DNA from: Catajapyx aquilonaris
Lineage: Eukaryota
Length of the DNA: 20,000 bases
NCBI GenBank assembly: GCA_000934665.2
Contig: JYFJ02001986.1
Coordinates: 45,127 to 65,126, forward strand
Direction: 5' to 3'
Part shown: in pieces, positions 1-20,000 of the stretch
How positions within the stretch are numbered: the stretch's first letter is position 1
Layout of the letters: every line of letters begins with the position of its first letter
The notes under the pieces: model-generated
Seen by the model: only the letters and a program-made list of their open reading frames with translations
Database searches by the model: none
What the model was told of the DNA's origin: nothing
Position numbers and translations under genes: made by a program

Positions 1-91
1 AAATTTTAATAATATAGAGGGTAGAATAAGAAATTTTATGTATTAACATATTACGAGAGTGTCGACGTCATAAGAATAATGCTCTATCAAT

Positions 92-422
92 ATGGGGAGA
101 CGGAGTGGCGCCGCGGTAACGCGTGCGCTCACGGAAGTTAAGGTCCCGGGTTCAATCCCCACCCGGGGTTCCCACCTTCTTTCGTGCAGAGTTGGGCCAT
201 CTCTGGCTTCGTTTCGGGTGGGAATATCCGCTAGACTAACCCACCCGGGGGAGTTCACGAAATGACAATATAACGACATTGCACTTGCACTTCGCACATC
301 CCCTCCTAATTACCCTTGGAGCAATTAGAAATACGTATATGTATCGCTCCAAACCACAAATGGTGGTAACCCACCCCCCTAGAAATGGCCTATCGGCCAG
401 ATAACGGGGTACAGGAAAAAAA
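92..422 (+). mobile_element. Full-length tRNA-derived SINE (~330 bp) with 11-bp target-site duplication
   Basis: A-box-like TGGCGCCGCGG at 106-116 and B-box GGTTCAATCCC at 149-159 (tRNA-like spacing); short A-tail ending at 422; exact direct repeat GCTCTATCAAT at 81-91 and 423-433. Confidence 0.85.
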
Positions 423-457
423 GCTCTATCAATCACATATTAAATGGAACAACCTTT

Positions 458-655
458 GTGTACATGTAGTGGTTAAGCTTTCAGATTGCTATTTGGGAGG
501 TCCTGAGTTCGAATCCCGGTGCCAACCATCCTCACTCGGGGCTGATTTCCGTCGAATCCTATCACTTTAGGGTAGTTTTCGGTTGGTTTGCCTTACAGTT
601 ACACAATATAGCCACATGCGANCCCCCCCCCCCCCTTATGATGTCGTTCAGTAAA
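458..655 (+). mobile_element. Degenerate tRNA-derived SINE (boundaries approximate)
   Basis: A-box-like TGTAGTGGTT at 465-474 and B-box GAGTTCGAATCC at 505-516 with tRNA-like spacing; no full cloverleaf and no TSD found; includes an N and a C13 run at 622-635. Confidence 0.55.
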
Positions 656-721
656 ATTTTGTCAAATTCCTGCTCTGGTCTATGTTGCTTGGTTATGATT
701 ACTACTCATATTATCCATCAC

Positions 722-739
722 CCTATATAATTATATAGG
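722..739. repeat. Perfect 18-bp palindrome CCTATATAATTATATAGG
   Basis: Sequence equals its own reverse complement; AT-rich, low complexity. Confidence 0.9.
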
Positions 740-3188
740 AGAAGCCATAATTATCTCATATTACGTTTTTTCATATGAGCATGTACGGTGCTGCAAAGTA
801 CTTCAATAAGTTATTATTTTGTAGTTCTACCTAAGTATGTTCTACTTTGCGTGCTAGGAAGGACACTGGCAGATTGAAAGGGATTTCGTGACACAAAATA
901 CGTGCATCATCCCTCCTCCAGACGTCTTCACTCTGTAAGCAGATAATGGACATCCATTAAGACTTTATTTTCTTCTTAGAGTGGGATGGGAGGTACAAGA
1001 ATACGTACTAACCTCACCTTACTCGTATATAGAGGTTATCACCACAGAAGTTTGTCGGAATCATTATGAAACATCCTGCATTGTTGCTCACTTTTGCCGA
1101 ATATGTGTGGGTGGCAGTACAACTTGTCGGAACTTCGTCAGCCTGCGGCGCGGTGTCCAGCGGATGCCACTCAGTGTCGAGAAGCTGACGGCACTCAGTT
1201 GTTGCACACTCGTGACAAATTTGTGGTCTTCAATGAGGTACGGGATGTGATTGGGAGCATTATTCTGCCAGTATTCTCAGAAGGATGTCTAGGCTATATC
1301 ACCAGTCATCACGAATCTTGATTTAGCTGCCTGTAGAGATCCAAGGCAGACCTTTTGTACCAGAAATGCCTCGAGTAGGCTGACGACCAGGTTGCATGAA
1401 ATCGCACCATGCAATGAGGCAGAAACATACCCGTTATGTCGGCTCCTAATAGGATCGCGACCTTTTCCTTCTGTCCAATGGAGCATGCGTCTGTGCTCGA
1501 AAGCCAAAGGGCTCCTTGCCAACAAAGCCGAAAGGAAGTCCCGATTGTTGTCTCCGCTTGCCGGCAATTGAGCCCGCATCTAAGCCAAAAGTGGACTGTA
1601 TTGGTTCTCTCGAAAGCCGGTGGTCCGGGGATGATTTGGTGGCGATACGGTTTGGTCGGACGCCCACCAAAATTTTGGACCGACTGTCCCTCCATTCCCC
1701 TCCTCCCTCCTAACCCTAATAATGGATACCAGCAGCAGAGTGTGCTCTTTGTGGTCAAGACAAAGGGCTCGGAAGACTGGAAACCGTGTCCAGTTGTGGC
1801 TTCATCCGAAAAGCGGGCCAAATTTTCTCCGTCCTTTACCCCTTGCCTTGGGGAGAAGGCTGGTAGGGGTTGAGGGTGAGGGAGGATGGAGCAACCGGAG
1901 CGTGCAACAACTCGGACGACGATGTGTCCGCACCGCTGACTCAGTCAACTGCAATGTTCCGCCGGAGATTCCAAAGGGTCGGGGTCATGCTGGCAAGGAC
2001 ACTCCGGATAAGAGGAACTCGAGCAGCAAAATTATTGGCTAAACTTTTTTTCCTGAAGGGAGTCGGAATTTACGTATACTTGTAGATGGGGGTATTAGTC
2101 TCAGTCAACAAGGTGCGTTAGGGAGATCACTCTGGGAATCACAGGAATCAGGGAGAATCTAGAAAGAGTTCAGTCCGAAGTTCAGTCTGATCCTGTTCCG
2201 CTCTACATTCTCTCAAAATTTCCAAGTAGGTTAAACATTTGAACTTATACGCCAAATATATTTACAGTACCGTATATTTTCCTATCAACAATGCCAAATC
2301 TGTGCATATATTTTTCAAAATCCCAATCGGAAAATGATGTTGTAGGTGAAACATATCAGAGGGTTGTCAAGAGTCCCATTTGGTCCTCTTGTTGCGGGCA
2401 GTATGTGTCAGTATGAGCAAAGCTATTTTATCTTTGATGTGGGGTGGATTTTCCGCATTACATTTGAAATCAACAACCCTACATCGCAGGCTTTTGTACT
2501 ATTCATGACAGTTCAATATCGAAAACTCGTTATTATTGGGCAATAATAAATGCACGAACTGCAATACTGGGTCAAATTCATGCGCAAACAGGCTGATGGT
2601 TCCGGGCATATATTTATATTTACGTCAAAAATTTCAGTACTACCTGTAGGGGGCGAAAAATAATGTCCAAAAATAAATCAAAACACGATAGTTTATAATT
2701 ATCTGTAGAAGGTACATTTTCCCGATCATTTCCTAGGTCGATTATTAATTTTAAAGGGCTAAAAAGCAAAATCATTAAGAAAGGTTCAAAATACCGCAGT
2801 AAAATAATTCATTATGGAAACCTAATTAGACCTACTTATAAGACATTAGAAGCTGTACTATCGTGACGTGAAAAGTCAGTGTTACCAAATTAGGAAACAT
2901 GACGTCACTCGCCCTGTTAAATTGCATTTCATTATGTAGAGAAGAAGTTTGGCCGAACCAGAAATTGTGAAGAAGAAAATCAAGGAGAACGGATGACTTC
3001 TGATGCCTTATAAGACCGCACTAGTTAGTGCTAATGACGTCTAAAGAGGGAACACGTGGCAATTACTCCGATTATCTTGATTAGTTCACAATAGCTGGTG
3101 CGTGTTTGTAATAACTTTTCCGATGCATCCCTCCTACAGGGAACGGGAAGCAAATGGCTTTCCGGTCACGTCACCTCTCCTCTCCTTT

Positions 3189-3216
3189 CCCCACCCAACC
3201 CCCTACCCCGTTCCCC
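3189..3216 (-). other. G-quadruplex-forming motif (C-rich on + strand)
   Basis: Minus strand reads GGGG-AAC-GGGG-TA-GGGGG-TT-GGG-T-GGGG: five G-tracts with 1-3 nt loops. Confidence 0.7.
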
Positions 3217-3470
3217 TACCACCTATTCTCCTCCGCCCTCAAAATGTGATAATTTGAGCCTCCCCTGGTGATTCCTAGGCGCACTAGCAGCAGGCCTCGC
3301 TAAGCGAAACTATGCCCCCATGACTTGCATGCACACTCACTGTATACGAGCGTATCATCAGATCATCACACAGACCATACTGGTACATATCAAAGCGTAC
3401 TGTACCTACTACATACCCTATATCTAACCACAAAAATCGATATTACATAATTATATCGAATCATTGCGAT

Positions 3471-3471
<1 letters not shown>

Positions 3472-3549
<78 letters not shown>
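3472..3549. repeat. (TAA)26 microsatellite
   Basis: Uninterrupted trinucleotide repeat read directly. Confidence 0.98.
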
Positions 3550-4139
3550 GTTAATGAGTTGGCCATAACTTGTATACAGTCATAGAAGCAGACCCATTAT
3601 GTAAGTCGAGTGCGATATTTTTTAGAAGAGAATGTAGCTTTGCAGCATGCATGTGCAGGCCCAAGTTGACGGCACCAGCCCATCGGCATAATTGGATTCT
3701 TGTTTGACAACGAAATTGCAGAGGGCGCTGCAACAATGCGGGAGTTTAAGCCGAGAACAATGGGGGTCATCCGCCGCTAGTTTGGCCCTGGCCTGGAAAA
3801 TATGGCCCAGGCACTCTGGAGGCAGAGAAAGGCTAAATAACTCCAGTTCCGAAATAACAGGCGCGCCAACAGGCGTCATTTTCCATAATGCCCCCCTGCA
3901 TGAACCTTGGTCCATGGCAAATATTGTGCAATTAGAAAAGAGGGAGGGGACAGAGGGGTCTGAATTGCGAAGACTCCCCTTTTGGCCAATTGAAGCCTGT
4001 AATCATCCGTGGGGGTCGCATTATGGCATGTTTATCAGGCCAGTGTATCAGTGGCTGCAGCATAACTACCTCCGGCCTATGTTACGCAGCCTGGGTATTC
4101 CGCTCACACAATGCAGTTACGACGTCCACTGCCCCCAAC

Positions 4140-4197
4140 CGCCGCACGTGATGTACACTACAGTACCCGCTCCCGCTGTGTTTACATCAGTGCGGCG
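4140..4197. other. 58-nt stem-loop
   Basis: CGCCGCAC/GTGCGGCG, TGATGTA/TACATCA and ACAG/CTGT pair around a 12-nt loop. Confidence 0.75.
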
Positions 4198-7100
4198 CTT
4201 TTGATCTCGTTCATCAACACGACTATTAAATTGCCACTCACCTAGCTCGTATTTTTGGTATCGCTGTCTTCATGCCCGGATTTTGACGTTTATTGCCGGT
4301 GTTAAAAGTGGGGGCCAACTATTTTTGACTGGGACGAACCTGCAATTCAGTCTTCACCCAGTGTGATAAGCCATGTTATGCCAAAACTAAGGGGGTTATT
4401 ACTCAGGCACGCTTCGTCAGTTCATGTGGGGCTAATACAAATGCCAGGGGGGCTTGGCTGCGACTTCCGGTATCTGCTGAGGAGCACTTACGGCCACAAT
4501 GTCCAACAAAAGGGGTCGTAACAATCACGTACAGGCTATTCGTCCAAATCGGTTTAGTTTATCAAGTGGTCGTGTCAAGAGACCTAATATTAGCAGCTAA
4601 TATTCTTGATAGCCTCCTAAATGTAACTGTTTAAAAGTTACTTCTTAATGGTAATCAGATTAGTGCAGTGTTGCTAAGTGAAATGGAAACTACTTCAACT
4701 GACGGACCAACAGGTGAGACGGGGAAAAGTTGATGAATTATTCACCCCTGGGCTATGTAAACAAAGTCGACAGCCATATTTGCGAATTTCTCAGTTGTTG
4801 CGACCATGAGATTCTCTGGAAGAAATTATCAGTAATGGTTTGAAGGCGTGTGTTTCTCACTTAAGAAGATTTTTAAACATCAGAACCAGTGCCCTTGGCA
4901 GCCTTAATGAGTTCCGTAGCCATGAAATATGCCCAAAAGTTAAAGGAGTTTTGCTAGACCGAAATTGGTCATTATTTTTTAAAAGTGCCAAACTATCCTT
5001 CAAGTTTTATGGTGAAGTAAAGTGAACTTTGAGGTTTTCACCGAAAGGCGTATACACCTTAATAAACTGTGCGCCTCAAGAAGAAGCATAAACTCCACTT
5101 TTACGATGCAGGGAAATTTTCTTCCAGGGATTGAATCTCAAAACATACAATGGCATTGTTGATTGCTGGTAAACAAAAAATAGAAAATTTTATGCACATT
5201 AAATACAGCTTAAAATACCATTTTATACTGAAAGTTGTATGACAGTACAACATATTTTCAATGTATAATGAGGTAAGTGTATTTAAGGTACACACAGTTG
5301 AAAAGTATTTTCTGTTTATTTACAGATGTATAATGAAAGTCGTCAATTTGAGAATCGCGTTAAATATTGGTGTTCTTTATCTTCGTCCAGTGGTTATCTG
5401 CATTTCACGCACGAAGCCGATTCCAGCTTTCATTTTTAAACTTGGAAGGATTGTTGACGGTTTGCTCAAACGCTGGGGTGGCAAGTTCTCTCTGCAAATG
5501 GGAAATAAAGGGCCTGGCAATTTCCGTTTGGCGAATCCTGCTTGTGAATTCCAAAAACCCAGTTGATGGCACAATGTTCTCCCGCGGAAAACCAAGCAAC
5601 TGAAATCCTATGCTAAAAGATGTGCGCATTAGGTTTACCGGTGCGAGCTTAATTCTCGCATGGATGAAGCTTAAATCCGATTTGGACTCCATTGCGCCGA
5701 GTACAGCACAATGAGAGCGAGGTGGAATTCGAAAATAAAGGCCAGTGTATTTTCTTTTTGTGCGTCGCCGTCTCTCTACATTCTATTTTTTATCACTTTG
5801 GAATGGCGTGGAGTGAAGCAACAAAGGGGGAAGGAAAGTGGAAAAGCTGATTATTGCTTATTCCTCATCCAGTCCGGATTGGCTGAGCTGTCCGAAGTCT
5901 CGTGAGGGAAAAGCTGTAATGGTGCCTTGGTTCTTTCCAAGCGCCAAGATCAATCTCCAAGAGCATCGATTGCTGCCGAGATTCCTTCGCATGGGGGAAG
6001 GATTCCCTTCCAGCTATACGCTTCCCAAATCGGAAATAGTTTTGCTCCGCGCATAGTGCATCCCTATGATACGAGTCTTCAATATTCGAGAACGACGCCA
6101 CAAAATATATGCAGGCTTTGCGGCAGCTTACTAGAATGGTTGCAGCCATTAGTGGTGCCTCACTTACTATAATGGTTTAACATCACAGCTACTGGTTTCT
6201 CACCAGCTGGACCCCCAAAATAATCTTTGCAAGCAACTTGCGTCATTGTCATCTCCTGTCGGTTCTCGTTCCTTAGCAACGACAATGGGCTCGAAAATGG
6301 ACCCGAGTTCTATTCAGTACACGCTGCGTAATGTAAAAGAGATCAGAAGGGCACCAGTTTCCTGTAATTTAACCTCGGAAAATTTTCCCTTTCCCAGAGC
6401 AGTTTCAGGAGCCATTGATTCATGCTGTTTCGAGCATGGCCTCTTCCCTTTCCCTTGAAACATCCGGATAAAAAAAGTTAGGCCCTTTCCCCCCTCCTCT
6501 TCTCTTGACCGCTGATTCAAAAGAACAGCAAAAGGGCCCACCCCTAGGGGAAATTCAAACCGACTTTTTTCCGGGTTCGAAACGACTCCACTTTATCCCG
6601 TTTGCTCACTGAAGAAATCCAAATTTGACCTGCACTTGGCCTCTTCCTCGACGTTTCTTCATGCTATAGTATACAGACTGCAGGATTGTATCAGAGTCAC
6701 GTAGCCAGAAATGTTTCCTGGAGTGAAAGGTGGAGGGTTTGCTTGATCCAATCAGTCACACACATCCTCCAACATGTGCGGCCGGTATTGTGTTCCTTCA
6801 TCCGTATTCAATGTCCGTTCGCGAATGACTTGTCATCATCTGACCTCACAATGCAGGTCATTGGACGCATCCAGAGAAGGCTCCTGGGAAAATATTGCAA
6901 TTTACCTACGGATGGCGTCCAAGCTAATAGTAAATACGCGTTTGCTCGAATCCTTGAAAATTCTGAATGCAAATCCAAGCTTTCTAGTGTGTGGGCAGAG
7001 GATAGTAGTCTGTGCTTACTGCTGCGGTAATGTATCTGCGGCTTGCTTGGTATTCTAATATCCCCGAAACTCAAGCGGCGAGTCCATTTCGGAGGCATTA

Positions 7101-10100
7101 GTCGGAGGTCTGGCTTCCACCCTTGGCCTCCTGCTTCTGACCACATACAATGACTATAAACCCCACGGAATTACTCATAACGGCACAGCTTATACGATCC
7201 ACGTTGGTCACTCATTTTTTCTTCTTATTTTTTCCACCCTAAGCCTGCGTTCCTCCTTTTTTTTTTTGGCCCTCCTACCTCTTTTTCTCTAACACCGCGC
7301 AGATTTTATTCCTTCAGTCCGGAACTGCAGAGAGGGCACTTTCAACACCACAATGACCGGGTTGAGGAGGAATAAAAGTAGATGGGGATCAGGACTAGTG
7401 GAGTGGAAATGCAGTCCAATCCCGCGGAAGGGACCACCAGCTTCCTGGCATTTTTCAGCAAAAAATTTTATTACTGCCATACAGTCCTGATTATTTGGCA
7501 CTGATGAGGCTGCTTGTCCTATTAGACTTTTAAATGACGAACGGTATATTCTACCAATGGGAATCTTCTATCAGCCACGAAGTATCCTTCTCAGGTTGCT
7601 ACTACAGTGCACACAATATACAATAACTAATATGTACTGTACACACAGGCATTGCAATTCATATATTTATTACTAGCGACTGCTTTTGTTCCAATTGGAT
7701 ACGGGGCCTGACTGACCTGATTCTCCCAGGAGCCATACAGTATACCCTATCAAGCTAATACTCGACACAATCTGGACTTCCTCCGGTAATAACAGCTTAC
7801 AACCTCGCGATACTCAAAAAGCCTGATTATTGTTGTCGCGACAGAAAAGTAAAATAAATGTTCCCGGAATACCTGGAGATCATTTAGGGTTGGTTTTGGG
7901 AAAGAGAACGTACAATCCACTTTGCAATCCGATCCCTGGAGTGCAGCAAGGGAAAGAAGGAAATGGCTGAGTAACACAACACCAGAGCACATCGCAGTGC
8001 CAGGCACTCTGCAGTTATCCAGACACGTTGTGTGTTCGAGTAACATTGTGGAGCCCGCTGCACTCCAAGCGTGCTCTCACTGTTGAAGAGTTGAGGTTTG
8101 CCATACCGCAGATAGGTCTACTGTAGCCCACCCCCACCTTTTTTTTACGACCCTCCATAAACGAGATCGTTTCACCCGCTACCAATCTCTTGCTGCCTTC
8201 CGTGTTTTCCACGGCCACCTTTTTGTCAGTGTTTTCCCCTGCGCGGCAAAAAGGACGTAAACTCATTTTATTTTCTATCCCGGAAAAGCCTCGGAATCAA
8301 TACATTCGAATCATACGCGCCAGTTGACACTACTGTCTCAACTACACAAAACAGAATTGTCCAACATATCACCATCATTGTTGACAGATATTGTGCCCCA
8401 TCGTTTTCACTGAATCCGAGTCACCCGCAGCATAATAATGTCGCAGATGTCTACGCACTTTGAGGCGCTTCTAAGATTAGTGGCGTTCATTATCGCCATG
8501 TGCCGACCATATTTCAGACATCCCTGTTGGCGCCGAAATTAATTTGGATGGGAGGGCCAAAAGGAGCGTCGGAAAAATAGATATGGCCTGGCCGAAAAAA
8601 ATGGCCCCCTTCAACGCAGCAGACCAGTAATTATTCAGGCCAGCGGAGACCACTTGAGTAATTAATGTGCTGCCGTCGCCCATTTATAAATTTTGAGGCA
8701 GAAACTCGCGCTTTTCCATATTATGCGCGCCTTACTCCCGGATAATATTTAGCAGGGGCCCCATCCGATGAGGATCATCCCGCTCTTCCCTTTTCCTTCA
8801 GATAAAGCCAGCTCATCAACTTTTCACTTCATTCCTGCAGCGATGAATTGGCTCCAGCTTTTCCGGCCCTTTTATTTCCGCCAGCTGCAGACGCCTACCA
8901 CCCTACAAGACACCACACACTATAGGAACTATCCAGTGCCGCCATACAGAATATAATAATTATGTGAGAGGCGGCATGACGTCGCTGTTATGGTTGCATA
9001 AATATGCGGCATAACACTGTTTGCCAGTATGTCAACAGGAGGGCTTTATAAAATAACTTACACCAAGAGTTGAAAAATATTGTTAACGAGCAGGAACTTC
9101 GATGTGCTTATTTTAGTATATTAGGTTGAACTTCACTGGCCTATTATTTTCAACCATTATGCCCAGTAAATAAAGAATGCACCATGATCAGCACTAGTCA
9201 ACAACAATCAAACACGATCTAGTTTCTCAACGTACCGGTATACACTAAAATAATTTTAGAAATGTGCAACTGACGACCTAATGTACTTTACAGAATCATC
9301 TATATTTGCATACCATCCTTTTCCTGCCTTTATAAAACCTCCGGGAATGAAGCCTTCAAGTTTCATTTGACAACTCTCAGAGCTAGGGACTTGAGCTAAT
9401 CAATATTGTAATATTATGTAAATGACATAAAAGCGTCTGTGCAGCCAGCCTCAATGAAATAAACTCTCACACAGATGTACAGTACACATGAAATCATCAA
9501 ACTATCTGATACAACTATCAGGAATAATATATTTATAATATCAGCGTATGTATAGGAATGTAAAGGCAGGAGGTGGCCAAAAAGGAGGCCTGGATTAATG
9601 CTGTGTTATAGTGCCCTCCAAGCTGAAATGGGATTGAAAATACTGTAAACTGTTTGCAGCCGGAATTCAACCTATGCGCCGCCACCGACTTTTGTTTTCC
9701 ACGCACCATCAACTGTGGCATGGCGAGAATAGGCCCCATGTGAATGTGGCTTTAACATGTGGGGAAAGGGAGCAGCCATCCGAATAACCTCCAACTGTTC
9801 AGGACGGATTTTGGTGCCGTGTGTCTCGAATTTGCGGGGATGTGAATGCGACCTAAGACGGGATAAGTCCTATAGTATAAAAATGATATTTTAGTCGAGT
9901 ACGTATGTAGATCGTTAAGGGTGAAAGGTTATTAAAATATGCCGTTATTAATATTAGATTTAACTGACACCCATTACTTTAGAAGGTTGCATGGTGAGAG
10001 TCAATGAATCATACCAGGTGTAATGTGAGCCCATAAATAGAGCAATTTTAGCAGTGTGTTGTGCGCTTTCTTAGGCCAGTGTCCATTAACGAGTCACACA

Positions 10101-11920
10101 CTGTTCTCTAATCCTATTAAAAATTCACACAGCCGACTAATCCCACCCTGAATGTGAATATTTCAAAGAGGAATATAGCCATGCAACCTTCCCCACATGT
10201 GAAGGTAAGGCTTGTGAGGCACCGTAGCCTGCAGTATACGCACAGAGAGCTTGAGCCCCTAGAACAAAATCGATAGTTTGGCGGATAAATGGCACAATGT
10301 CAGTTTGTCTCCTCGACGTCCTCATCAAAGGGGGCCCTGCTGCGAGCCATACTCACGCCCATGCCCACACAGACAAAGAACTCTCTCCAACACACTTAGA
10401 TTCATCGGCAGCCTCCAGATAGAACGAGAGGGTCAACCCTCCCCGTTTCCCAAATTAACCTGCCCCTCCCTTCTACCGGCCTCGTGGAGCATATTAAGCT
10501 GACACACGGGCTGTCCGACATTTTCCGGGCGCCTGCATGCAAAAGGAGAAGGTTCTCCCGTGATAAGGCGCCCTCAGTACATTATTGCCGCCTGCCTGCG
10601 GTGACCTGTCTGCTTCCCTGCCTGCCCGACCTTATTTTTGGCTCTTATGGCCACTGTTCACGTGCGATGACTCTCATCCAACTATAGCCTTACTTAAGGG
10701 CGAATCACAACTATTGTTGAGGAGGGCTTGAAACGCTTCGGAGCATTGATTTTATAGCCTGCCAAGTATCCCTGAAGACAATGATCTAGTAATTGGCAAT
10801 CGATGATAGTAGGAGGATGAGTCCTAAAACCTACAACACAATCTAAAAGATTGTGGGGAGTTTTTTTTTGGGCTCTCTTCATTTCTGCAAATCCCATTTC
10901 TTGATCGCCCGCAATGTCTGACCCGATTAAGTCGTTTTTCGACTAGAAGGAGTCGCATTGTCGTAATCGCGTGGAGAGGTTCCCAATCATCCAATTTCAC
11001 TCCCCCCTTATCCAGAACTTATCAACATACATGGACAAAAAAAGGGGGCAGAAAACTTTCGAAAACCATTCCTACATTTCAGAAGAGAATAAATTGCAGT
11101 GTTCATTTGCCCCACTTATCAAAGAGCACGCAACACAAATGATTGAAGAGTAATGAAATGTCAATTTCGTCAACATTGGTCTTGATTATGCAGATGATAA
11201 GTGCGATGACGGACATTGTTTGGAAGTGGATCGATCGACAAGCAAATTGGGGACAGTGAGGAAGCACACTCAGAATAGCCTTGGCCCCTTTGTTGGCGGC
11301 GGAGACTTGTGTTCCATCGCTAATAAGTGGCTAATTCAGTTTGCTAATGAGTCGACGAATAATCAGCGGGGGTTTTCAACCAAGCAGTCGGGCTTTTCTC
11401 TGCAGAGGGAAAATCCTCCCATGCTGCAGGCTGCAGAGACTCCCTTCCTGAATCATGCCTTCGCATGCAAGAGCAGGAAATTATTCGACCTCCTTCTCCA
11501 AATAGAGAAAGTAGGCATATTAGTGCCAATATTCAGACTGGAAAGACCATTTATATATTTATACGTCAAATTTACAAAGGTGTTCCGTTCATTTTCACTG
11601 AAATTGCAACAAAAATTACCGTACTAGTTAATTATAAATATATGCCTCATTTATTAACTTTTACTGCTAGTCGGAAACAATGCGTGACCCATATGCGACC
11701 AAAGCGCAATCATTACTGCTGCGAACGTGGCACACGTTACTGGTACATTATCAGCTCAATTAATATTTAATTACATCACCCGACATTATAACAAATTATT
11801 AATTATTATAAACAATGAGAGTTCATCATGTAGGCATGGGTTAGGGCGTGTGGTAATGAGAGTGACCATAGTGTTCTAATTGAACGGGGTATTCAATATG
11901 GAATTATTTACTTGGGACAG

Positions 11921-12098
11921 GTTAAACAGCTTGGTACATGGACTAAGTGCCACAGGGTTCCACACAGTCAACGTCCTACTTCACTCGGCGGTCACCATAC
12001 TTTTGGCCATCCTGTGCAGGAGAGACCTCCGCTTGGGGGCACAGGTCACATGGACGGCGTGTCTTCTCTTCGCCATACATCCGGTCCACACGGAAGCC
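11921..12098 (+). CDS. TMTC1: TMTC1-like protein O-mannosyltransferase, internal exon A (178 nt, phase 2-0)
   Basis: Acceptor GACAG at 11916-11920, donor GTAAGT at 12099; encodes (R)LNSLVHGLSATGFHTVNVLLHSAVT...LLFAIHPVHTEA with the FHxxNVxLH and LFAxHPxHTEA motifs of the TMTC family. Confidence 0.93.
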
Positions 12099-13150: not shown

Positions 13151-13224
13151 GTAACGGGCATCGTAGGGCGGGCTGACGTTCTGGCTGCTTTGCTCTTTCT
13201 GCTTTCCTTTCTCTCTTACCTAAG
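13151..13224 (+). CDS. TMTC1: TMTC1-like internal exon B (74 nt, phase 0-2)
   Basis: Pyrimidine-rich acceptor TTTTCTTCTGCAG, donor GTAAGG at 13225; encodes VTGIVGRADVLAALLFLLSFLSYL(R), in frame with exon A. From memory of the paralogues, GRADVLAxLLFLL is closest to TMTC1. Confidence 0.93.
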
Positions 13225-14013: not shown

Positions 14014-14124
14014 ATTCAATTGCAGCGTTAAAATAAATATTTAAATTGATGCAAATGGTACCTTGTGGAATATACAGTACTGTACATACTTAACAGTATT
14101 CACCTTGTATACTTTTTGCTTCAG

Positions 14125-14145
14125 GTCTGCACTAACTTACACTAA
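14125..14145 (+). CDS. TMTC1: Candidate 21-nt alternative microexon of the TMTC1-like gene (adds SALTYTK)
   Basis: Acceptor TACTTTTTGCTTCAG, donor GTGAGA, phase 2-2 matching the host intron, no stop; branch-point-like CTTAAC at 14089-14094. Confidence 0.55.
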   Translation, partial: VCTNLH

Positions 14146-14311
14146 GTGAGAAATATATTTGCATTTTACTGTACTCCTTACAGTGGGTCAGTGGCCACTG
14201 TGTATAGCTAAGAGCGACTGTGAGTTGTTACTCCCCTAAATGCACATGACTGCATGTAGCTTACTGTGAAACATTTTGGGTATTTTCCACTTTTCTGACT
14301 GATCCAGACAC

Positions 14312-14640
14312 TTAGCTTGGGGAAATGGTCGATTTGGAACAACAGCCTTTATCTGGGTGTGGTTCGAGTCGCTCAGCTAATTTAACGGCCGCAATAAAAT
14401 AAGCAAGTGAGATTGGAGACAGCCAGGCAACTTCTCACTCCTTCAGCCAGTCGTATGGTTAAATCCAACCAATCCGGTGCATTTCCGGAACAGCTGTATG
14501 ACATTATTGCTCAGGAGCCACAATAAAATGATAACGAGGCACGGCATCATGGATTTACCTCTCTCTTCAGCTCGAATGACGTAGGAGTTGGAAATAAACC
14601 AGTTACTCCCCAGTGGCTGCCCTCATTCGCATTTATCCTT
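14312..14640 (+). mobile_element. Possible old tRNA-derived SINE (3' boundary uncertain)
   Basis: A-box-like TGGGGAAATGG at 14318-14328 and B-box GGTTCGAGTC at 14361-14370, the same 43-nt start-to-start spacing as in the SINE at 92-422; no TSD seen. Confidence 0.4.
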
Positions 14641-15551
14641 AATAATTGCGTTCTTAAGAAGGATACTTCAGGCCTACTGCAATTGAATCTATCTTTCGCT
14701 CAACTTTAATTTTATATTTTTAAATGCTCAGCTACTTGATAGAATGTTCTCTAATGATGTAAATTACTCATATTAGAAAGCATTTGCTCGAATTTTGTGA
14801 ATATGCGATATGCTTACGCTTGGTTGACATTAAAGATCTCGCAACTCCGGGTCAGGAGGATTGGGCCACAATTTACAAAATTTATATCAAAATTACAGGA
14901 CCAGAATACGCCTCGGGGTCAGCCGGGACGGATAAAGGAGACTCTAATAAACACATCCTTTAACATAATCGCTCTTGACCTGTCACGTGCACGCATCAAA
15001 AATCTCCATTATTGTGCAGCCATTGCTCTTGATATCTGGTGAATAGCAGCAATGCTCTATGGTTGTCGGAGGAAGATACCAGTGTTTAACATGGATTCAA
15101 GTCACGACCAAGTATTATACTTCCCATTTGACATGACAGTGGCTGTTCTTATGCTGCTATTATCTGGGTCAAAGGAAGTGCGTCAATATTAGAGAGTTAC
15201 GACTAAGGGAAAGATACGCCTGAACTCTCATACGCTATTATATTGTATAGCCAATTTTGTGGCTTTGACTGAATAGTCGATATCTGTGGAAGGCGGATTT
15301 TCTACTGTGATATACCTAGGATTGTCTATTTTTAAATTCATAATGAGTTTTGGCCTGATGTGGGCTAACAAATAATAGAAAATTATAGCATTAAGTATAA
15401 TTACACCATATGCAGAAGCATTCTGCTTCCTGAATATGCTTTCACTGTAGAGTAATTATCCCAACTGAAATGGTTGTAATATAATTAACTAACACTATGT
15501 CAGAACTCTGAAATTTTAAAACAATAATCTAATATTCTGTAACATAATAAT

Positions 15552-15775
15552 ATTGTATTAGGTTACCCCGGGATAGGCCTGTGACCGTTTTAATGCCTGC
15601 ATTAATTCACTGACTGTACTTTTTACTGATTTTGACTGTGGGAGAATCACGAGAGAACTCATGGAAACTCTGCATGAGAAATTCCTCTACCCAATCCGGA
15701 GATAGAACTCGGGATCTAAGTGACCTCAGAGGAAGAAGGCTGTGGTGCTAGCCACTGTACCTTTATGGCCGTCCC
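15552..15775 (-). mobile_element. tRNA-derived SINE (~224 bp), antisense to the host gene
   Basis: Minus strand starts GGGACGGCC; A-box-like GGTACAGTGG (15752-15761), degenerate B-box GAGTTCTATCTCC (15698-15710); flanked by ATAATAAT at 15544-15551 and 15776-15783 (low-complexity TSD). Confidence 0.7.
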
Positions 15776-15880
15776 ATAATAATCCAATACAAAATAATTA
15801 ACGTATTATAAAAAATGTGAACAAAAACTACCGTAGTTGTTGCAATCGTGTTGTAACGGTCTGCTTACACAACCGCATCT

Positions 15881-15955
15881 TTTTATCCACGCGCGCTTTA
15901 GAAGCACCTTCGCTGCTAGCATAAAAGGGAGCTTCTAAAGCTTGCGTGGGAAAAA
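15881..15955. other. 75-nt stem-loop
   Basis: CCACGC-NN-GCTTTAGAAGC (15887-15905) pairs with GCTTCTAAAGC-NN-GCGTGG (15931-15949), 17/19, extended by TTTT/AAAA outside and CCTT/AAGG inside. Confidence 0.8.
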
Positions 15956-17069
15956 CAAACAAACAATAAGAGAGTGTAGTCTTGTACCACCATTTCTGTT
16001 CTCTTTTCCTCTACAAGGAAAAGCTTCACGCAGCAGGCAATATCACCATCAAAGTAGGATAGAATACACGAAGAAAGAAAAGAAATATAACAAGCTTCCG
16101 AACATAATGAGGTTGTCACTTTGCCGACGACAGGTACGTCACGAATTCGTGAGAGGTATGGAAAGAGGCCTAGTAACGTAGTCATATCGTTTCCCACCTC
16201 GTCCGCCATCTGACGTCCCCTATTATGCGATATGACAAGTGTCGATAAGATAAGCCCCGTATCTTTTTCTGTGGGGGCATAAATAATTTATGAATTCATT
16301 TACGACGAAAAAGAGGAGGAATGGTCTGCACCGAATAATCTCACGCATGTTATAACGTTCCGTGCTAAAGGAAAACCCCACCAAAATATTTAAGTTACGT
16401 GTACTATGATATGTAACCGTGAAATTGTCGTGCGTATCAAAATATCTGATAACATTTGCGATAGGGTGAGGGAGTGGGTGCGTGTGGGACAGGATTCGAC
16501 TCTTACTTTGCCCAGAGGCTTCAACGTGGAAGCCTAAGAAGATCAGTTTCCTCAGAGCCTCAGTCTTGGGACCAATCATTCAACTCGATAGCTACTTCTT
16601 TCAAAACAGTATCTTCTTCTTGACTGAGTACAATCCGCTTCTCTCCTCTCAAAAGGGATTTGAAGTATCCGCATTCAATTTAGGTCCCAGTTCATTATTA
16701 TCACGTGACAGATTCTATCCCAAATTTCTCATGGACTCTTCGATTTCAAATCAACTGAAGCCAAGCGACATTACTTTAACCAATGCCTGAATTCCTAACC
16801 AAACAAAGGAAATATTTTACTCTGTATGTAGGGTCCGTTAGACTGTATGGACAGATTTCACTGTATCAGTCACTAGTAATAAGATGTGTCAGCCATTTTG
16901 ACATTTTTGAAATATATTATATATAAAAAAGAAAAAGAAAACCATTTTTGTTGAATACGTTGAGTGTAATGTAGGAAAGTTGAGGTGGAAGTTTCATAAG
17001 TGAAATTTCTTTTTCTCTTTGTCACTGCAGGAGTGCCTGCTGCTTTAGACATAAATAAACGTTGAATTT

Positions 17070-17146
17070 TATTTTGGCACTTTTTTTCGCCTCTGCAAGC
17101 AATAAATAATTTATTGCTTGAAGAGGAGAAAAAAAGGGCCAAAATA
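17070..17146. repeat. 77-bp near-perfect palindrome
   Basis: Arms 17070-17107 and 17109-17146 are reverse complements at 35/38 positions with a 1-nt spacer. Confidence 0.92.
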
Positions 17147-17342
17147 CTGGCAAAATAATCTGATTTGGTCTCGTGATACCTGAAAGTGCAAGAATAAAAA
17201 TGAAAAATATATTGCATTGGGTAGACCGGGAATCATCAAAAGTCTTAATTCGTTTGTAATCACCACCAGTGAGTTTTCTCTCTATAGGAGACTGTAATAT
17301 CTCTACCAGATATCTGACTTGGCCAGTAGAAAGCACCATATC

Positions 17343-17407
17343 GCTCAAAAAGATTGAGATGATATTAAAATTTGGTTCAGTGCAAAATCGTCTCAATATT
17401 TTTGAGC
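17343..17407. repeat. Inverted repeat with 21-bp arms
   Basis: GCTCAAAAAGATTGAGATGAT (17343-17363) vs ATCGTCTCAATATTTTTGAGC (17387-17407), 19/21, 23-nt spacer. Confidence 0.85.
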
Positions 17408-17600
17408 AAGGTAGGACCTTTTGAGAACTAAATTAATCAATGCCAAACTAAATTTTGACCCAAATGTGATTATGATCGTTATGCATTTCAGGTATTTAGA
17501 GTTTGCGTCCGAATCACTAGCAGCAGCCTTAATATACGATATTTTATAATGTAGTTTAAATAATTATATGACATTATAAGGGCCTCGGATCTCTTGACAG

Positions 17601-17822
17601 GTGCCTGGAAAAATGGTGGTGTCCAGAGAAGTCCAGGTCATCCCCACTCTCGGTAATGTCGTCCGTGTTAGACGACCCCGAAGGCTGGTGGGTTTGCCTG
17701 AAGCGCCTGTGGCCATCTCTTCTCCTGGCCACAGCTTCGATGCTGGCCAAGGAGCACGGAATCACCGTCCTGGGAGTCAATGCTCTCTGGGACATGACCA
17801 CTTCTGCAAGCCTGCTCCGGAG
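17601..17822 (+). CDS. TMTC1: TMTC1-like internal exon C (222 nt, phase 2-2)
   Basis: Acceptor CTCTTGACAG, donor GTGAGA at 17823; encodes CLEKWW...LWPSLLLATASMLAKEHGITVLGVNALWDMTTSASLLR(R) containing the conserved MLxKExGITV motif. This frame is not in the ORF track. Confidence 0.92.
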
Positions 17823-17974
17823 GTGAGATCCGAGTCTCGCTATTCTCCGTCACCCTACCTCCAAATTCGAATAAGCTGGAATAACAACATTTCCTCACTC
17901 TCCGACTCGGCTCATTACCACATCCCCAACTCAACTATTTCTCCATCTCCTATTAACACAGATCCTTGCCGCAG

Positions 17975-17986
17975 GCACAACTATCA
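17975..17986 (+). CDS. TMTC1: Candidate 12-nt alternative microexon of the TMTC1-like gene (adds HNYQ)
   Basis: Acceptor TCCTTGCCGCAG, consensus donor GTAAGT at 17987, phase 2-2, no stop; upstream CT-rich AG-free zone 17876-17959 and branch-point-like ATTAAC at 17952-17957. Confidence 0.55.
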
Positions 17987-18417
17987 GTAAGTGAAAGATA
18001 ATTCGGCAGAGGCACTGAGGCAGGCGAGCTACTGCACTATTCATGTCGACACTGACTGTTCTGCCTTCAGCCCTCCGAATTCACTGGGACTACTGAACTT
18101 TCTAGGGAGGTGGTACTTGCTAAGCCAGAACAAATAAGGGCAGTCAGTGTAAATATTACACAAAAGTTCAAAGTAACACTGTAGGCCCAACGCATGGGAA
18201 ATAGGTGGTGGTCTTATCCATTTAAAGGGCAGTAACCTCTGGAAGAAACATTCTGTGACTGTTGCTTTCCTGGTCATTGTAACTATTTCACCTACAGTAG
18301 GCCAAGCAGTAGGCCTACTCAGTGCACCAACTGGCATATTTATTTATTCACTAATGAAGGATGTAACTAGCCGTTATTTTTATTTTATTTTCACAATCTC
18401 TCTTTCAATCGTTCCAG

Positions 18418-18490
18418 GGCTCTGGAAAGCAAGAAGATTGACTCAGCCACTTCTCAGTTATTGAAAAGAATCGTCATTCTCGGCCTTACC
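18418..18490 (+). CDS. TMTC1: TMTC1-like internal exon D (73 nt, phase 2-0)
   Basis: Long pyrimidine tract ending GTTCCAG, donor GTAAGT at 18491; in frame with exon C, encodes ALESKKIDSATSQLLKRIVILGLT (loop leading into the next hydrophobic helix). Confidence 0.85.
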
Positions 18491-19021
18491 GTAAGTATAT
18501 TTTGACTTTTTTTTCCTCCGTAACATTCAGTTTGTAAGCCTTCTCTGGGCCACTAATTGGAGAGAGGCGGGAAGCAGAGTTGGGCTTGCGAGAGGAGGGA
18601 AGGGGGATTCTCGGGCCAAAATGGCACCGTAATGATGGAGTTTCGCCGAAAACAGCAGTGAGAGCGGTTTCCTTGGAATTGCTTCTAGGCATTCGTCAAG
18701 GTTAGATTTTGACATACAGTATTAGTACCGATTAGTTTCATTCCAGCTTAATGACACTAACTCTCGGAATTTGTCATATTTGTGTAAGAATAACTTTCAT
18801 AACTGCTATTTATACAGGCTGAATTCGCAACACACTCCTCGCGCTACTTTCCAACAATAAAGCTGCTTTACACTAACTCTTATGTAGAAGGATACGTCAA
18901 AGGATCCTGCCAATAATGGGTCTTGCTTTCGATTCCAGTCAATTTAGTGAAGTTAGTTGATAATAATATGCTACAAATCCGCTCAGGAACTTGTGATTTT
19001 GGGGGCAACATTTGGAGGAGC

Positions 19022-19099
19022 GAAAGTATCATGACAGCCAATCCTCTTTCGATTTCGGGAATCAAAATCGAGAGCAGATTGATTGCTATGTTTACTTTC
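19022..19099. repeat. Imperfect palindrome, probable MITE core
   Basis: GAAAGTA..CAATCCTCTTTCGATTT pairs with AAATCGAGAGCAGATTG..TACTTTC (inner arms 14/17). Confidence 0.6.
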
Positions 19100-19149
19100 T
19101 GTCCCCCAATATTGTTACTCCAGATCGGAATTCCCAATATGGAAGCTAC

Positions 19150-19150
<1 letters not shown>

Positions 19151-19212
<62 letters not shown>
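19151..19212. repeat. (AGT)20 microsatellite
   Basis: Uninterrupted repeat; source of the poly-L, poly-S and poly-V ORFs in the track. Confidence 0.98.
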
Positions 19213-19464
19213 ACTACACAATATTATATGCTGCCCAAGTGAATGTCATATTTTTCGTGCTAAGGTAACAGTTTGGATCGTTAGTGTAGTAGGCTTCTTA
19301 AAGCTGCATCATTTGGACTGTTCGTAAGATACCAGGATTGTAATATCGCGCATCCATCTTCATTCGTTTTGCATTAGCATATTCAATGTTCATATGATTG
19401 TATGCTTTGTCATCAATAAATAACACTGTTCTGTAATGGGTCAATAAATAAGCTATATTCTGAC

Positions 19465-19835
19465 CACGGTCTGAGAATAGTAAGGTCTGGTAACTCTTCC
19501 CCCGTTTGTGTGCGCACTAGTTGATCCACCCCTTGTCGCTAGTGTCGTGCGGCATAGATGTAGCCAGCGCCTCTCTAGCGGGCTGATTCTGCATTTAACA
19601 TCGCGTCGATTCACAATCGACACAGGCTTGAATCGATGCGGAGTGTTTCAGAATCGCCCGCGAGGATGCGCCACAGAGCTTTATGTATGCGTTTTTTGCA
19701 TGCAGCCTTGAGGCAGCAGCGCCATGACGGATCCATCACCTGGGTGGGGGAGCACAACTAGTGAGCACGCACAGGGGGAGCCGTATACTTGGTATAGGAG
19801 AGTCCTGGGCATGGTCATAGAATACTAAGGTCTGG
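19465..19835. mobile_element. Foldback/MITE-like element bracketed by 26-bp direct repeats
   Basis: Nested inverted arms 19507-19523/19755-19771 (15/17), 19578-19591/19649-19661 and 19602-19613/19629-19640 (11/12); direct repeats at 19465-19490 and 19810-19835 (22/26). Confidence 0.65.
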
Positions 19836-20000
19836 ACACTCCCACCTACCCCCTTCCGGGGCGTTTTGCAGGAGGTGCTCACCTGAGAGCGCCATGAGAC
19901 CTTTCACTGCACTGTTATGTGGCGACCCTGCCGGACTACGCTGAACTTTATAGGTACAAAAGGGAAGCGCTACATGCGGACCCAACATGGCCGCCGGCGA

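Follow-up and report, generated by a model that had tools for sequence, protein, structure and literature searches.

Two microexon-like sequences in the introns of a TMTC-like gene of Catajapyx aquilonaris are probably chance pseudo-exons

Introduction

When two short stretches in the introns around one exon carry the same splice-site letters, are they a pair of jointly regulated microexons, or do they look like exons by chance? Pseudo-exons are AG...GT pairs that look spliceable by their signals but that the cell never uses as exons. To our knowledge, real microexons should be far rarer per intron than such pseudo-exons, which gives any single candidate a low prior. A 20-kb stretch of DNA from Catajapyx aquilonaris (here called the window, meaning the whole 20,000 nt analyzed) raises the question in a TMTC-like gene. 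An original prediction proposed that two candidates, m1 (21 nt) and m2 (12 nt), form a co-regulated, possibly neuron-specific switch in an enzyme that modifies cadherins.

Results

A TMTC-like gene with phase-2 introns around exon C

Three exons, A, B, and C, on the + strand of the window belong to a gene for a TMTC-like ER O-mannosyltransferase (Table 1). By hydropathy, exon A codes for two hydrophobic helices, TM2 and TM3, and ends in an HP-x-HTEA stretch; its TM3 stretch resembles the human TMTC3 TM3 peptide quoted in the available excerpts of PMC7801869. These excerpts (Table 4 and the Fig. 2 legend) also give the motif definitions and topology used here, with M3 as R-x-D in EL2 and the TMTC consensus of M4 as K-E-T/Q-x-x-T in EL3. 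Exon B carries M3 as R-A-D together with TM4, and exon C codes for the cytosolic TM4-TM5 loop, TM5, M4 as K-E-H-G-I-T in the lumenal loop EL3, and TM6, so that both motifs are present with hydrophobic segments flanking them. The third residue of M4 is His here, in contrast to the Thr or Gln of animal TMTC1-4 in the same excerpts. Exon B stops after the second base of a codon, while exon C begins with a third base and likewise stops after a second one; the introns on either side of exon C are therefore phase 2.

A motif scan and the ORF listing revealed no DD or SHKSYRP motif, DUF1736 loop, or TPR part in the window, and no upstream exon with SHKSYRP or DD. An exon D inside the window was considered and rejected, since no TM7- or DUF1736-like ORF occurs in 17990-20000. 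All of these pieces presumably belong to stretches of the gene beyond the 20 kb, and the usual transcript most likely runs from exon B straight into exon C and on to an exon past the end of the window.

Table 1 Exons and candidate microexon features of the TMTC-like gene (positions in the window; slash, exon boundary)
Feature	Position	Strand	Length	Details
Exon A	11921..12098	+		Phase 2 in, phase 0 out; ORF and splice consensus
Exon B	13151..13224	+	74 nt	Phase 0 in, phase 2 out; donor GTAAGG
m1 3' splice region	14090..14124	+		TTAAC 14090-14094; AG 14095-14096; pyrimidine run; TTGCTTCAG 14116-14124
Candidate microexon m1	14125..14145	+	21 nt	
m1 candidate donor	14146..14151	+		GTGAGA; exon side TAA; 6/9 match to MAG/GTRAGT
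Exon C	17601..17822	+	222 nt	Phase 2 in and out; donor GTGAGA
Exon C to m2 interval	17823..17974	+	152 nt	CU-rich; TTAAC 17953-17957; AG 17960-17961; TTGCCGCAG 17966-17974
Candidate microexon m2	17975..17986	+	12 nt	
m2 candidate donor	17987..17992	+		GTAAGT; exon side TCA; 6/9 match to consensus

The TMTC-like identity and the placing of the K-E motif in exon C, the latter part of the original prediction, appear reasonable given the motifs, the topology, and the relative found for exon A. This nearest relative is a bacterial TM and TPR protein of 599 aa (L001), to which residues 13-59 of exon A are 56% identical; exons B and C gave no BLASTP alignment to it. Exon A matched six loci in metagenome contigs, and of the five examined (L001-L004 and L006) L001 is the only true relative: L002 is an adenosylhomocysteinase, the matches in L003 and L006 run antisense to another gene, the verdict on L004 comes from its identical match, and no eukaryotic orthologous locus was found among the five. 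No orthologue of exon C was found in protein collections or metagenome contigs, its one match among 1.84 billion representatives being marginal, repetitive (E 1.9e-4), and not orthologous. Searches among longer proteins gave no relatives for exon C, and those among proteins of longer and near length gave none for exon A. Pfam produced nothing meaningful on the exon pieces and no hit for 12 long intronic ORFs, the window was empty in Rfam and tRNA scans, and PDB yielded no relative, just chance adenosylhomocysteinase matches. The Atlas returned PMT_2/Dol-P-Man mannosyltransferase clusters at only 0.77-0.80, below 0.9.

Splice signals and coding capacity of m1 and m2

The letters on which the original prediction was built can be read at both candidates: TTAAC, a nearby AG, TTGCnnCAG/G, and GTRAG, with TGC at the same offset (-8 to -6) and G as the first base of either exon. 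Its starting position, 14089, was one base early, with TTAAC running from 14090; the remaining letters of m1 and m2 were as described. Both lengths are divisible by 3 and compatible with phase-2 introns, again as predicted, and both fall within the size range of frame-keeping microexons (about 3-27, up to 51 nt).

Candidate m1 lies 900 nt downstream of exon B, inside a 4.4-kb intron. Its first AG (14095-14096) stands 2-3 nt past the putative branch A, and the acceptor has a pyrimidine fraction of 0.76, an AG-free stretch of 26 nt, TGC at -8, and YTRAY at -32. In phase 2, m1 would add Ser-Ala-Leu-Thr-Tyr-Thr and a Lys from a split codon right after TM4; it is open in this required phase only, with a stop codon in both other frames. 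Candidate m2 would add His-Asn-Tyr and one further residue (split CA- codon) to the loop past TM6, and its frame test is uninformative because all three frames are open. The 152-nt interval before m2 has a pyrimidine fraction of 0.625, the 97th percentile of + strand windows, and its last 100 nt contain four UCUC/CUCU copies, upstream of the putative branch site, against none counted for m1. Directly before the m2 3' splice site, the AG-free stretch is just 11 nt.

By the topology in the excerpts of PMC7801869, both inserts would fall in loops on the cytosolic side of the membrane, across from the catalytic K-E site in the lumen. The spacing from M3 Asp to M4 Lys without m1 is already 66 residues, compared to 43-50 in human TMTC1-4 (Table 4 of the same excerpts); the protein thus has no need of the inserts.

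Chance rate of similar pairs and of the shared motif

In-phase, open AG..3n..GTRAG pairs number 7 in the 6,554 nt of the two introns, and 500 dinucleotide shuffles give 7.44 on average (P = 0.55). According to the original prediction, other such pairs had failed the frame test; this was not confirmed, since five more AG..GTRAG pairs of 3-51 nt, which it leaves unnamed, are in phase, open, and 3n in length (14404-14406, 16134-16148, 18531-18533, 19285-19323, and 19713-19760). Across the window, AG..GT pairs of 3-51 nt number 3,232 on the + strand and 3,200 on the - strand, and those with a donor match of at least 7/9, YAG, and a pyrimidine fraction of at least 0.5 number 21 and 27, respectively; with splice-site strength expressed as a crude consensus match plus pyrimidine counts, both m1 and m2 fall below this donor cut-off.

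Templates closer to the candidates are rarer by chance. A loose template (YTRAY in -45 to -11, TGC in -20 to -3, YAG, 3n length, open in phase, GTRAG) has 2 matches; shuffles give 0.25 (P = 0.034), and 30.5 kb of control DNA taken from this window give none. Once the frame condition is dropped, the template matches 3 times in 6.55 kb compared to 2 in 31.6 kb. The exact shared motif (TGCNNCAG up to the exon boundary, then 3n and GTRAG) has two copies on the + strand of the window and none on the - strand. Shuffles contain 0.033 copies on average, and the P value for at least two copies, 0.002, is post hoc because the motif was read off m1 and m2 themselves. The original prediction named a high frequency of the composite motif in shuffled introns as grounds for giving it up; the comparison was run, and since the motif is rare in shuffled sequence, these grounds do not apply.

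The likeness of the two candidates extends beyond the template. Among 14,963 pseudo-acceptor pairs in the window, m1-m2 is the only one with at least 7/11 identical positions in which, in addition, the two sites share their YTRAY pentamer and an AG follows it; the alignment of the two exons with their donors scores 20, which 1.1% of random windows attain. An origin of this likeness in a repeat or a duplication was considered and rejected, as it does not reach past ~30 nt and no repeat family covers either site. The loose-template excess, the uniqueness of the pair, the exon-donor alignment, and the CU-rich stretch before m2 are observations that run against a chance origin.

Partial fit to the SRRM/eMIC architecture

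Microexons controlled by SRRM/eMIC factors are described, in the available portions of PMC8797185 and bioRxiv 10.1101/2024.09.17.613571, as having long AG-exclusion zones, a long distance from branch point (BP) to AG, and a long UCUC-rich polypyrimidine tract. In the same portions, 74-79% of human microexons that depend on SRRM3/4 have a UGC between the branch site and the AG, the median eMIC exon length is 31 nt, fly eMIC exons are reported between short introns, and the fly branch sequence is CUAAY. Both m1 and m2 have UGC near the 3' splice site, a feature that is not specific, given that the constitutive exon B also carries TGC, at -5. Long AG exclusion is not seen: the AG-free stretches of m1 and m2 (26 and 11 nt) compare with 47, 62, and 18 nt at exons A, B, and C. 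The putative BP-AG distances are 31 nt (m1) and 18 nt (m2); at both candidate branch sites, the AG used is the first one at a workable distance, a side observation that does not favor chance. Both branch pentamers, UUAAC, fit YTRAY and not the fly CUAAY. Judged from their letters, m1 and m2 therefore fit the published architecture in part.

Discussion

We consider it likely, with good confidence, that m1 and m2 are intronic pseudo-exons that arose by chance and are presumably not spliced in. Short AG...GT pairs would match the required length and phase fortuitously, and m1 resembles m2 because both were picked for one textbook template (branch site, UGC, CAG/G, GTRAGT). The co-regulated, neuron-biased switch of the original prediction is, by our own estimate, probably wrong, and it is unlikely that even one of the two candidates is a real exon.

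The best placed of the alternatives, improbable as it is, holds that m2 alone is real, with a 152-nt CU-rich intron followed by a 12-nt exon, constitutive or alternative, and m1 a product of chance. The intronic part of its donor, GTAAGT, is perfect, its pyrimidine-rich upstream interval is of a typical short-intron size, a branch-type TTAAC stands 19 nt ahead of the exon, and the short introns reported around fly eMIC exons (PMC8797185 and bioRxiv 10.1101/2024.09.17.613571, portions as above) would suit it. However, 12 nt open in every frame provide no coding signal, the polypyrimidine tract right before the AG is weak (0.53), a rival AG 13 nt upstream has a better tract and would give a frame-breaking 25-nt exon, and the CU-rich stretch may be an intronic element of exon C.

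Less credit is due to the reading in which m1 and m2 are both real alternative microexons, controlled together in the SRRM/eMIC manner. The UGC 6-8 nt before the AG would then recruit the eMIC factor in neurons, and inclusion would add 7 residues past TM4 and 4 past TM6, flanking the TM5-TM6 hairpin with the K-E motif. The architecture shared by m1 and m2 and rare in shuffles, the unique similarity of their 3' splice regions, the UGC between a YTRAY branch site and the AG, lengths within the eMIC range, the preserved phase, and the CU-rich sequence upstream of m2 are consistent with this reading. Against it stand the short AG-exclusion zones and BP-AG distances, the UUAAC in place of CUAAY, the post hoc definition of the shared motif, and the very low prior that we would give to neighboring introns each containing a real microexon. 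Fly CG31690 and CG4050 and mouse Tmtc1 and Tmtc4 are never classed as eMICdep in the consulted part of table S2 of PMC8797185, where they appear in the LowPSI/HighPSI background groups only, so that no TMTC exon there is eMIC-dependent in fly or mouse. A full-text literature search gave no title on a TMTC microexon, and a TMTC splicing switch of this kind is not described in the literature searched or in that part of the fly/mouse table. One UGC-reading factor that co-included both exons would lengthen the cytosolic loops around this hairpin, whose K-E motif is the Dol-P-Man phosphate/metal motif, and would thus switch a cadherin O-mannosyltransferase by splicing on its cytosolic side, a scenario that we hold to be very improbable.

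That m1 alone is a real 21-nt alternative exon, with m2 due to chance, is equally improbable. Its 3' splice region equals that of exon B in quality (pyrimidine fraction and CAG/G), it is open solely in the required phase, and its donor is identical to that of exon C, but the exon side of this donor, TAA, limits the consensus match, the long intron around it holds two other in-phase candidates, and the TM4-TM5 loop already exceeds the human TMTC length in the excerpts of PMC7801869. The least favored possibility, that the two are decoy or intermediate splice sites that would affect long-intron removal or exon C recognition and yield no protein isoforms, could draw on the good-looking splice signals near exon C and the CU-rich interval, but it is speculative and finds no AG/GTRAGT juxtaposition; recursive splice sites were rejected for the lack of the same juxtaposition, as m1 begins GTCTGC and m2 begins GCACAA.

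If the co-regulated pair were real, it would link the neuronal microexon program to cadherin protein O-mannosylation and offer a compact exon pair to probe how UGC position sets co-regulation. With chance pseudo-exons as the preferred reading, the main lesson is that in-phase AG...GT pairs arise easily in long introns (7 in 6.5 kb), and that choosing sites by one template also makes them alike. Sequence alone is insufficient to carry the claim made for m1 and m2.

Compared with the animal TMTC1-4 cadherin O-mannosyltransferases (excerpts of PMC7801869), the gene shares the TM3 stretch, R-x-D before TM4, and K-E-x-x-x-T between hydrophobic segments, whereas just three of its exons are in the window. 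Like the microexons of vertebrate SRRM3/SRRM4 and fly Srrm234-eMIC in the portions of the literature cited above, m1 and m2 are tiny and frame-keeping and have UGC, a CAG acceptor, and GTRAG donors; m2 in addition has a short CU-rich upstream intron that resembles the published UCUC...UGC enhancer. Unlike those microexons, these candidates combine short AG exclusion and BP-AG spacing with a UUAAC pentamer. They are more alike in detail than random pseudo-sites of this window are, and, as is usual for pseudo-exons, their places are deep inside long introns or at the margin of one, with a pair count at chance (7 versus 7.4).

Host gene and its predicted exons

Three coding exons, A, B and C, lie on the + strand of the window. 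Their frames are open, their ends fit the splice consensus and their phases match, and the predicted boundaries rest on the same three features (see table). By hydropathy, exon A carries two helices, exon B one and exon C two weaker ones; R-A-D precedes the helix in exon B, and K-E-H-G-I-T sits between the two helices of exon C. The TMTC topology set out in the passages of Eisenhaber et al. (PMC7801869) cited here comprises 11 transmembrane (TM) helices with a cytosolic N terminus and five lumenal loops. Motif M3 (R-x-D) lies there in the lumenal loop EL2, just N-terminal to TM4, and motif M4 (K-E-(T/Q)-x-x-T) lies in EL3, the TM5-TM6 interval, where its Lys touches dolichyl-phosphate-mannose at the phosphate and its Glu touches the metal ion; cadherin O-mannosylation is the role that these passages give to TMTCs. 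The TM3 peptide of human TMTC3 quoted in the same passages ends much like the end of exon A.

A search with exon A returned six metagenome loci, and among the five examined (L001-L004 and L006) one is a true relative: the bacterial contig L001, the sole relative retrieved, whose protein is 56% identical to exon A residues 13-59. This 599-residue protein (193-1992, +) has an N-terminal membrane domain followed by C-terminal TPR repeats. The membrane domain resembles TMTC TM2-TM5, with an HP-I-HTEAV stretch and K-E after a helix, and the protein is of the kind of the prokaryotic full-length TMTC homologues mentioned in the cited passages of PMC7801869. Atlas look-alikes fall in PMT_2/Dol-P-Man mannosyltransferase clusters with scores of 0.77-0.80, weak and to be read as leads only. 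Pfam and PDB searches with short exon pieces gave no meaningful match, and for exon C neither an orthologous protein in the protein collections nor a locus in the metagenome contigs was found. Neither motif scan nor ORF listing found EL1 motifs, a DUF1736 loop or a TPR part in the window, and 12 long intronic ORFs in it (6 within 1-11920) matched no Pfam family. The scan for EL1 motifs recognised no upstream TMTC exon in 1-11920, so the intron 5' of exon A is probably longer than 11.9 kb. We accept the host gene as TMTC-like.

The window holds several other features. About 455 nt upstream of exon C, the intron contains a near-perfect hairpin (17070-17146, +) whose 38-nt arms, with a 1-nt gap, are 92% complementary. 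Folded as RNA, the segment 17060-17156 reaches -42.3 kcal/mol (z = -8.3, 200 shuffles), and the hairpin matches no Rfam family; it may be either a hairpin RNA of the intron or a small palindromic mobile element. Another inverted repeat in the introns (17343-17407, +) has 24-nt arms with 88% complementarity around a 17-nt loop, and there are perfect trinucleotide microsatellites, (TAA)26 at 3472-3549 and (AGT)20.7 at 19151-19212.

Sequence and placement of the two candidates

The candidate microexons, m1 in the intron between exons B and C and m2 downstream of exon C, had been proposed as a co-regulated, possibly neuron-specific switch, and every letter reported for their 3' splice regions, exons and donors is present in the sequence.

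Predicted exons, candidate microexons and further in-phase pairs in the window
Feature	Position	Strand	Details
Exon A (predicted)	11921-12098	+	phase 2 in, phase 0 out; donor GTAAGT
Exon B (predicted)	13151-13224	+	phase 0 in, phase 2 out; donor GTAAGG
Exon C (predicted)	17601-17822	+	222 nt; phase 2 in and out; donor GTGAGA
m1 TTAAC	14090-14094	+	read from sequence
m1 nearby AG	14095-14096	+	read from sequence
m1 TTGCnnCAG	14116-14124	+	TTGCTTCAG; read from sequence
m1 candidate exon	14125-14145	+	21 nt
m1 candidate donor	14146-14151	+	GTGAGA
m2 TTAAC	17953-17957	+	read from sequence
m2 nearby AG	17960-17961	+	read from sequence
m2 TTGCnnCAG	17966-17974	+	TTGCCGCAG; read from sequence
m2 candidate exon	17975-17986	+	12 nt
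m2 candidate donor	17987-17992	+	GTAAGT
In-phase AG..GTRAG pair	14404-14406	+	
In-phase AG..GTRAG pair	16134-16148	+	15 nt; CAG/G acceptor; donor GTGAGA
In-phase AG..GTRAG pair	18531-18533	+	
In-phase AG..GTRAG pair	19285-19323	+	
In-phase AG..GTRAG pair	19713-19760	+	

Both host introns are phase 2. m1 would add Ser-Ala-Leu-Thr-Tyr-Thr plus Lys from the split codon, and m2 His-Asn-Tyr with one further residue, encoded by a split CA- codon. The claim that both are in the right phase stands for m1, which is open in phase 2 only, and is uninformative for m2, which is open in all three frames. The AG beside each TTAAC lies 2-5 nt past the putative branch adenosine. An AG that near a branch adenosine is too close for use, and from general splicing knowledge the proposed AG would thus be the first usable one in both candidates. 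At both donors the usual AG is missing on the exon side, which limits the match with the 9-position consensus to 6 of 9.

Other such pairs were said to have failed the frame test, which proved incorrect: another five AG..GTRAG pairs, 3-51 nt in length, also pass. The 15-nt pair among them, unlisted in the original prediction, has TGC 10-12 nt before its AG and no YTRAY in -45..-11, and shows how easily such candidates arise.

The inserts had been placed in hydrophilic loops bordering the K-E helices, rightly so by the published topology: in the cited passages of PMC7801869 the loops that join TM4 to TM5 and TM6 to TM7 lie in the cytosol, and K-E, like all seven conserved TMTC motifs, faces the lumen. 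Both inserts would therefore sit across the membrane, on the face opposite the active site.

Chance rate of the motifs

Under a bare criterion (AG, 3n length of 3-51 nt, open in phase 2, GTRAG), the two introns (6,554 nt) contain 7 pairs versus 7.44 +/- 3.70 expected (500 dinucleotide shuffles; P = 0.55). When features were added one at a time, 5 pairs had YAG (shuffle mean, 3.67; P = 0.30), 3 also had TGC in -20..-3 (mean, 0.86; P = 0.072), and 2 also had YTRAY in -45..-11 (mean, 0.25; P = 0.034), so that the full template is nominally enriched about 10-fold. The same template is absent from 11.2 kb of other + strand sequence and from 19.3 kb of the - strand; without frame and length class, the introns (6.55 kb) hold 3 matches and the control sequence (31.6 kb) holds 2. 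The exact shared motif, TGCNNCAG up to the acceptor junction followed by a 3n exon and GTRAG, is found at m1 and m2 only in the whole window on both strands (shuffle mean, 0.033; P(>=2) = 0.002, 1000 shuffles), the motif being defined post hoc. The composite motif is thus rare in shuffled introns, and the chance-rate check suggested with the original prediction does not count against it. Both the shared motif and the template ranges were chosen after the sites were seen, and choosing sites by likeness to one textbook template itself makes m1 and m2 alike; the nominal P values of 0.002-0.03 are suggestive only.

The 175 pseudo-acceptors of the window give 14,963 pairs, 109 of them with at least 7 of 11 positions identical. 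Three of these 109 also have a YTRAY pentamer in common, and one of the three, m1-m2 itself, also has an AG after that pentamer. The exon-plus-donor alignment of m1 and m2 scores 20, a value that 1.1% of random windows attain. Descent of m1 and m2 from one repeat is unlikely, since their similarity ends after about 30 nt and no repeat family covers either site.

Interpretation of the candidates

Few introns contain a real microexon, and pseudo-exons that fit the phase are plentiful. With this low prior set against the nominal enrichment of the template and the unusual, post hoc similarity of the two sites, we infer that m1 and m2 are most probably both chance pseudo-exons. It is unlikely that m2 alone is real. 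The 152 nt directly 3' of exon C and up to m2 (17823-17974, +) have a pyrimidine fraction of 0.625, which places them at the 97th percentile among windows of the + strand, and their last 100 nt include four UCUC/CUCU. Whether m2 is real or not, this interval could serve exon C as an intronic splicing element. An AG 13 nt upstream of the m2 acceptor has a better pyrimidine tract, and its use would give a 25-nt frame-breaking exon. That m1 alone is real is very improbable. The distance from M3-Asp to M4-Lys without it is already 66 residues by count, the same distance being 50, 45, 43 and 47 residues in human TMTC1-4 (cited passages of PMC7801869). Nothing is missing from the predicted protein that m1 would need to supply. 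No more probable is a pair of real, co-regulated exons, to which the shared motif points and for which the similarity is discounted by the choice of sites. Some non-coding splice-site role for these sites is the least probable of all. The proposal is a testable, weakly supported hypothesis and not a discovery.

Comparison with known microexon programs

In the part of table S2 of PMC8797185 used here, the fly TMTC genes CG31690 and CG4050 and the mouse genes Tmtc1 and Tmtc4 appear in the LowPSI/HighPSI background groups only, with exons of 69-1418 nt; the eMICdep group there contains no fly or mouse TMTC gene, and fly CG4341 and CG5038 are absent. A full-text literature search found no title on TMTC microexons, and bioRxiv and other supplements might list such exons.

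As described in the cited parts of Torres-Mendez et al. (PMC8797185), eMIC-dependent exons show a 31-nt median length and short flanking introns, weak 3' splice sites with long AG-exclusion zones, UGC near the 3' splice site, long UCUC-rich pyrimidine tracts and strong CUAAY branch sites. The cited parts of a 2025 preprint (10.1101/2024.09.17.613571) add that the branch point and pyrimidine tract are distant from the AG, that the microexon enhancer is bipartite (UCUCUC...UGC) and that 74-79% of the human microexons that depend on SRRM3/4 have UGC between branch point and AG. Unlike the eMIC-dependent exons so described, neither candidate has a long AG-exclusion zone (AG-free stretches of 26 nt in m1 and 11 nt in m2; 47, 62 and 18 nt in exons A, B and C), the branch motif is UUAAC rather than CUAAY, and a CU-rich upstream interval, a short one, is found in m2 only. 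The constitutive exon B also has TGC near its AG. Set against these differences, m1 and m2 are like eMIC-dependent exons in length and UGC, and both have a branch-type motif, UUAAC.
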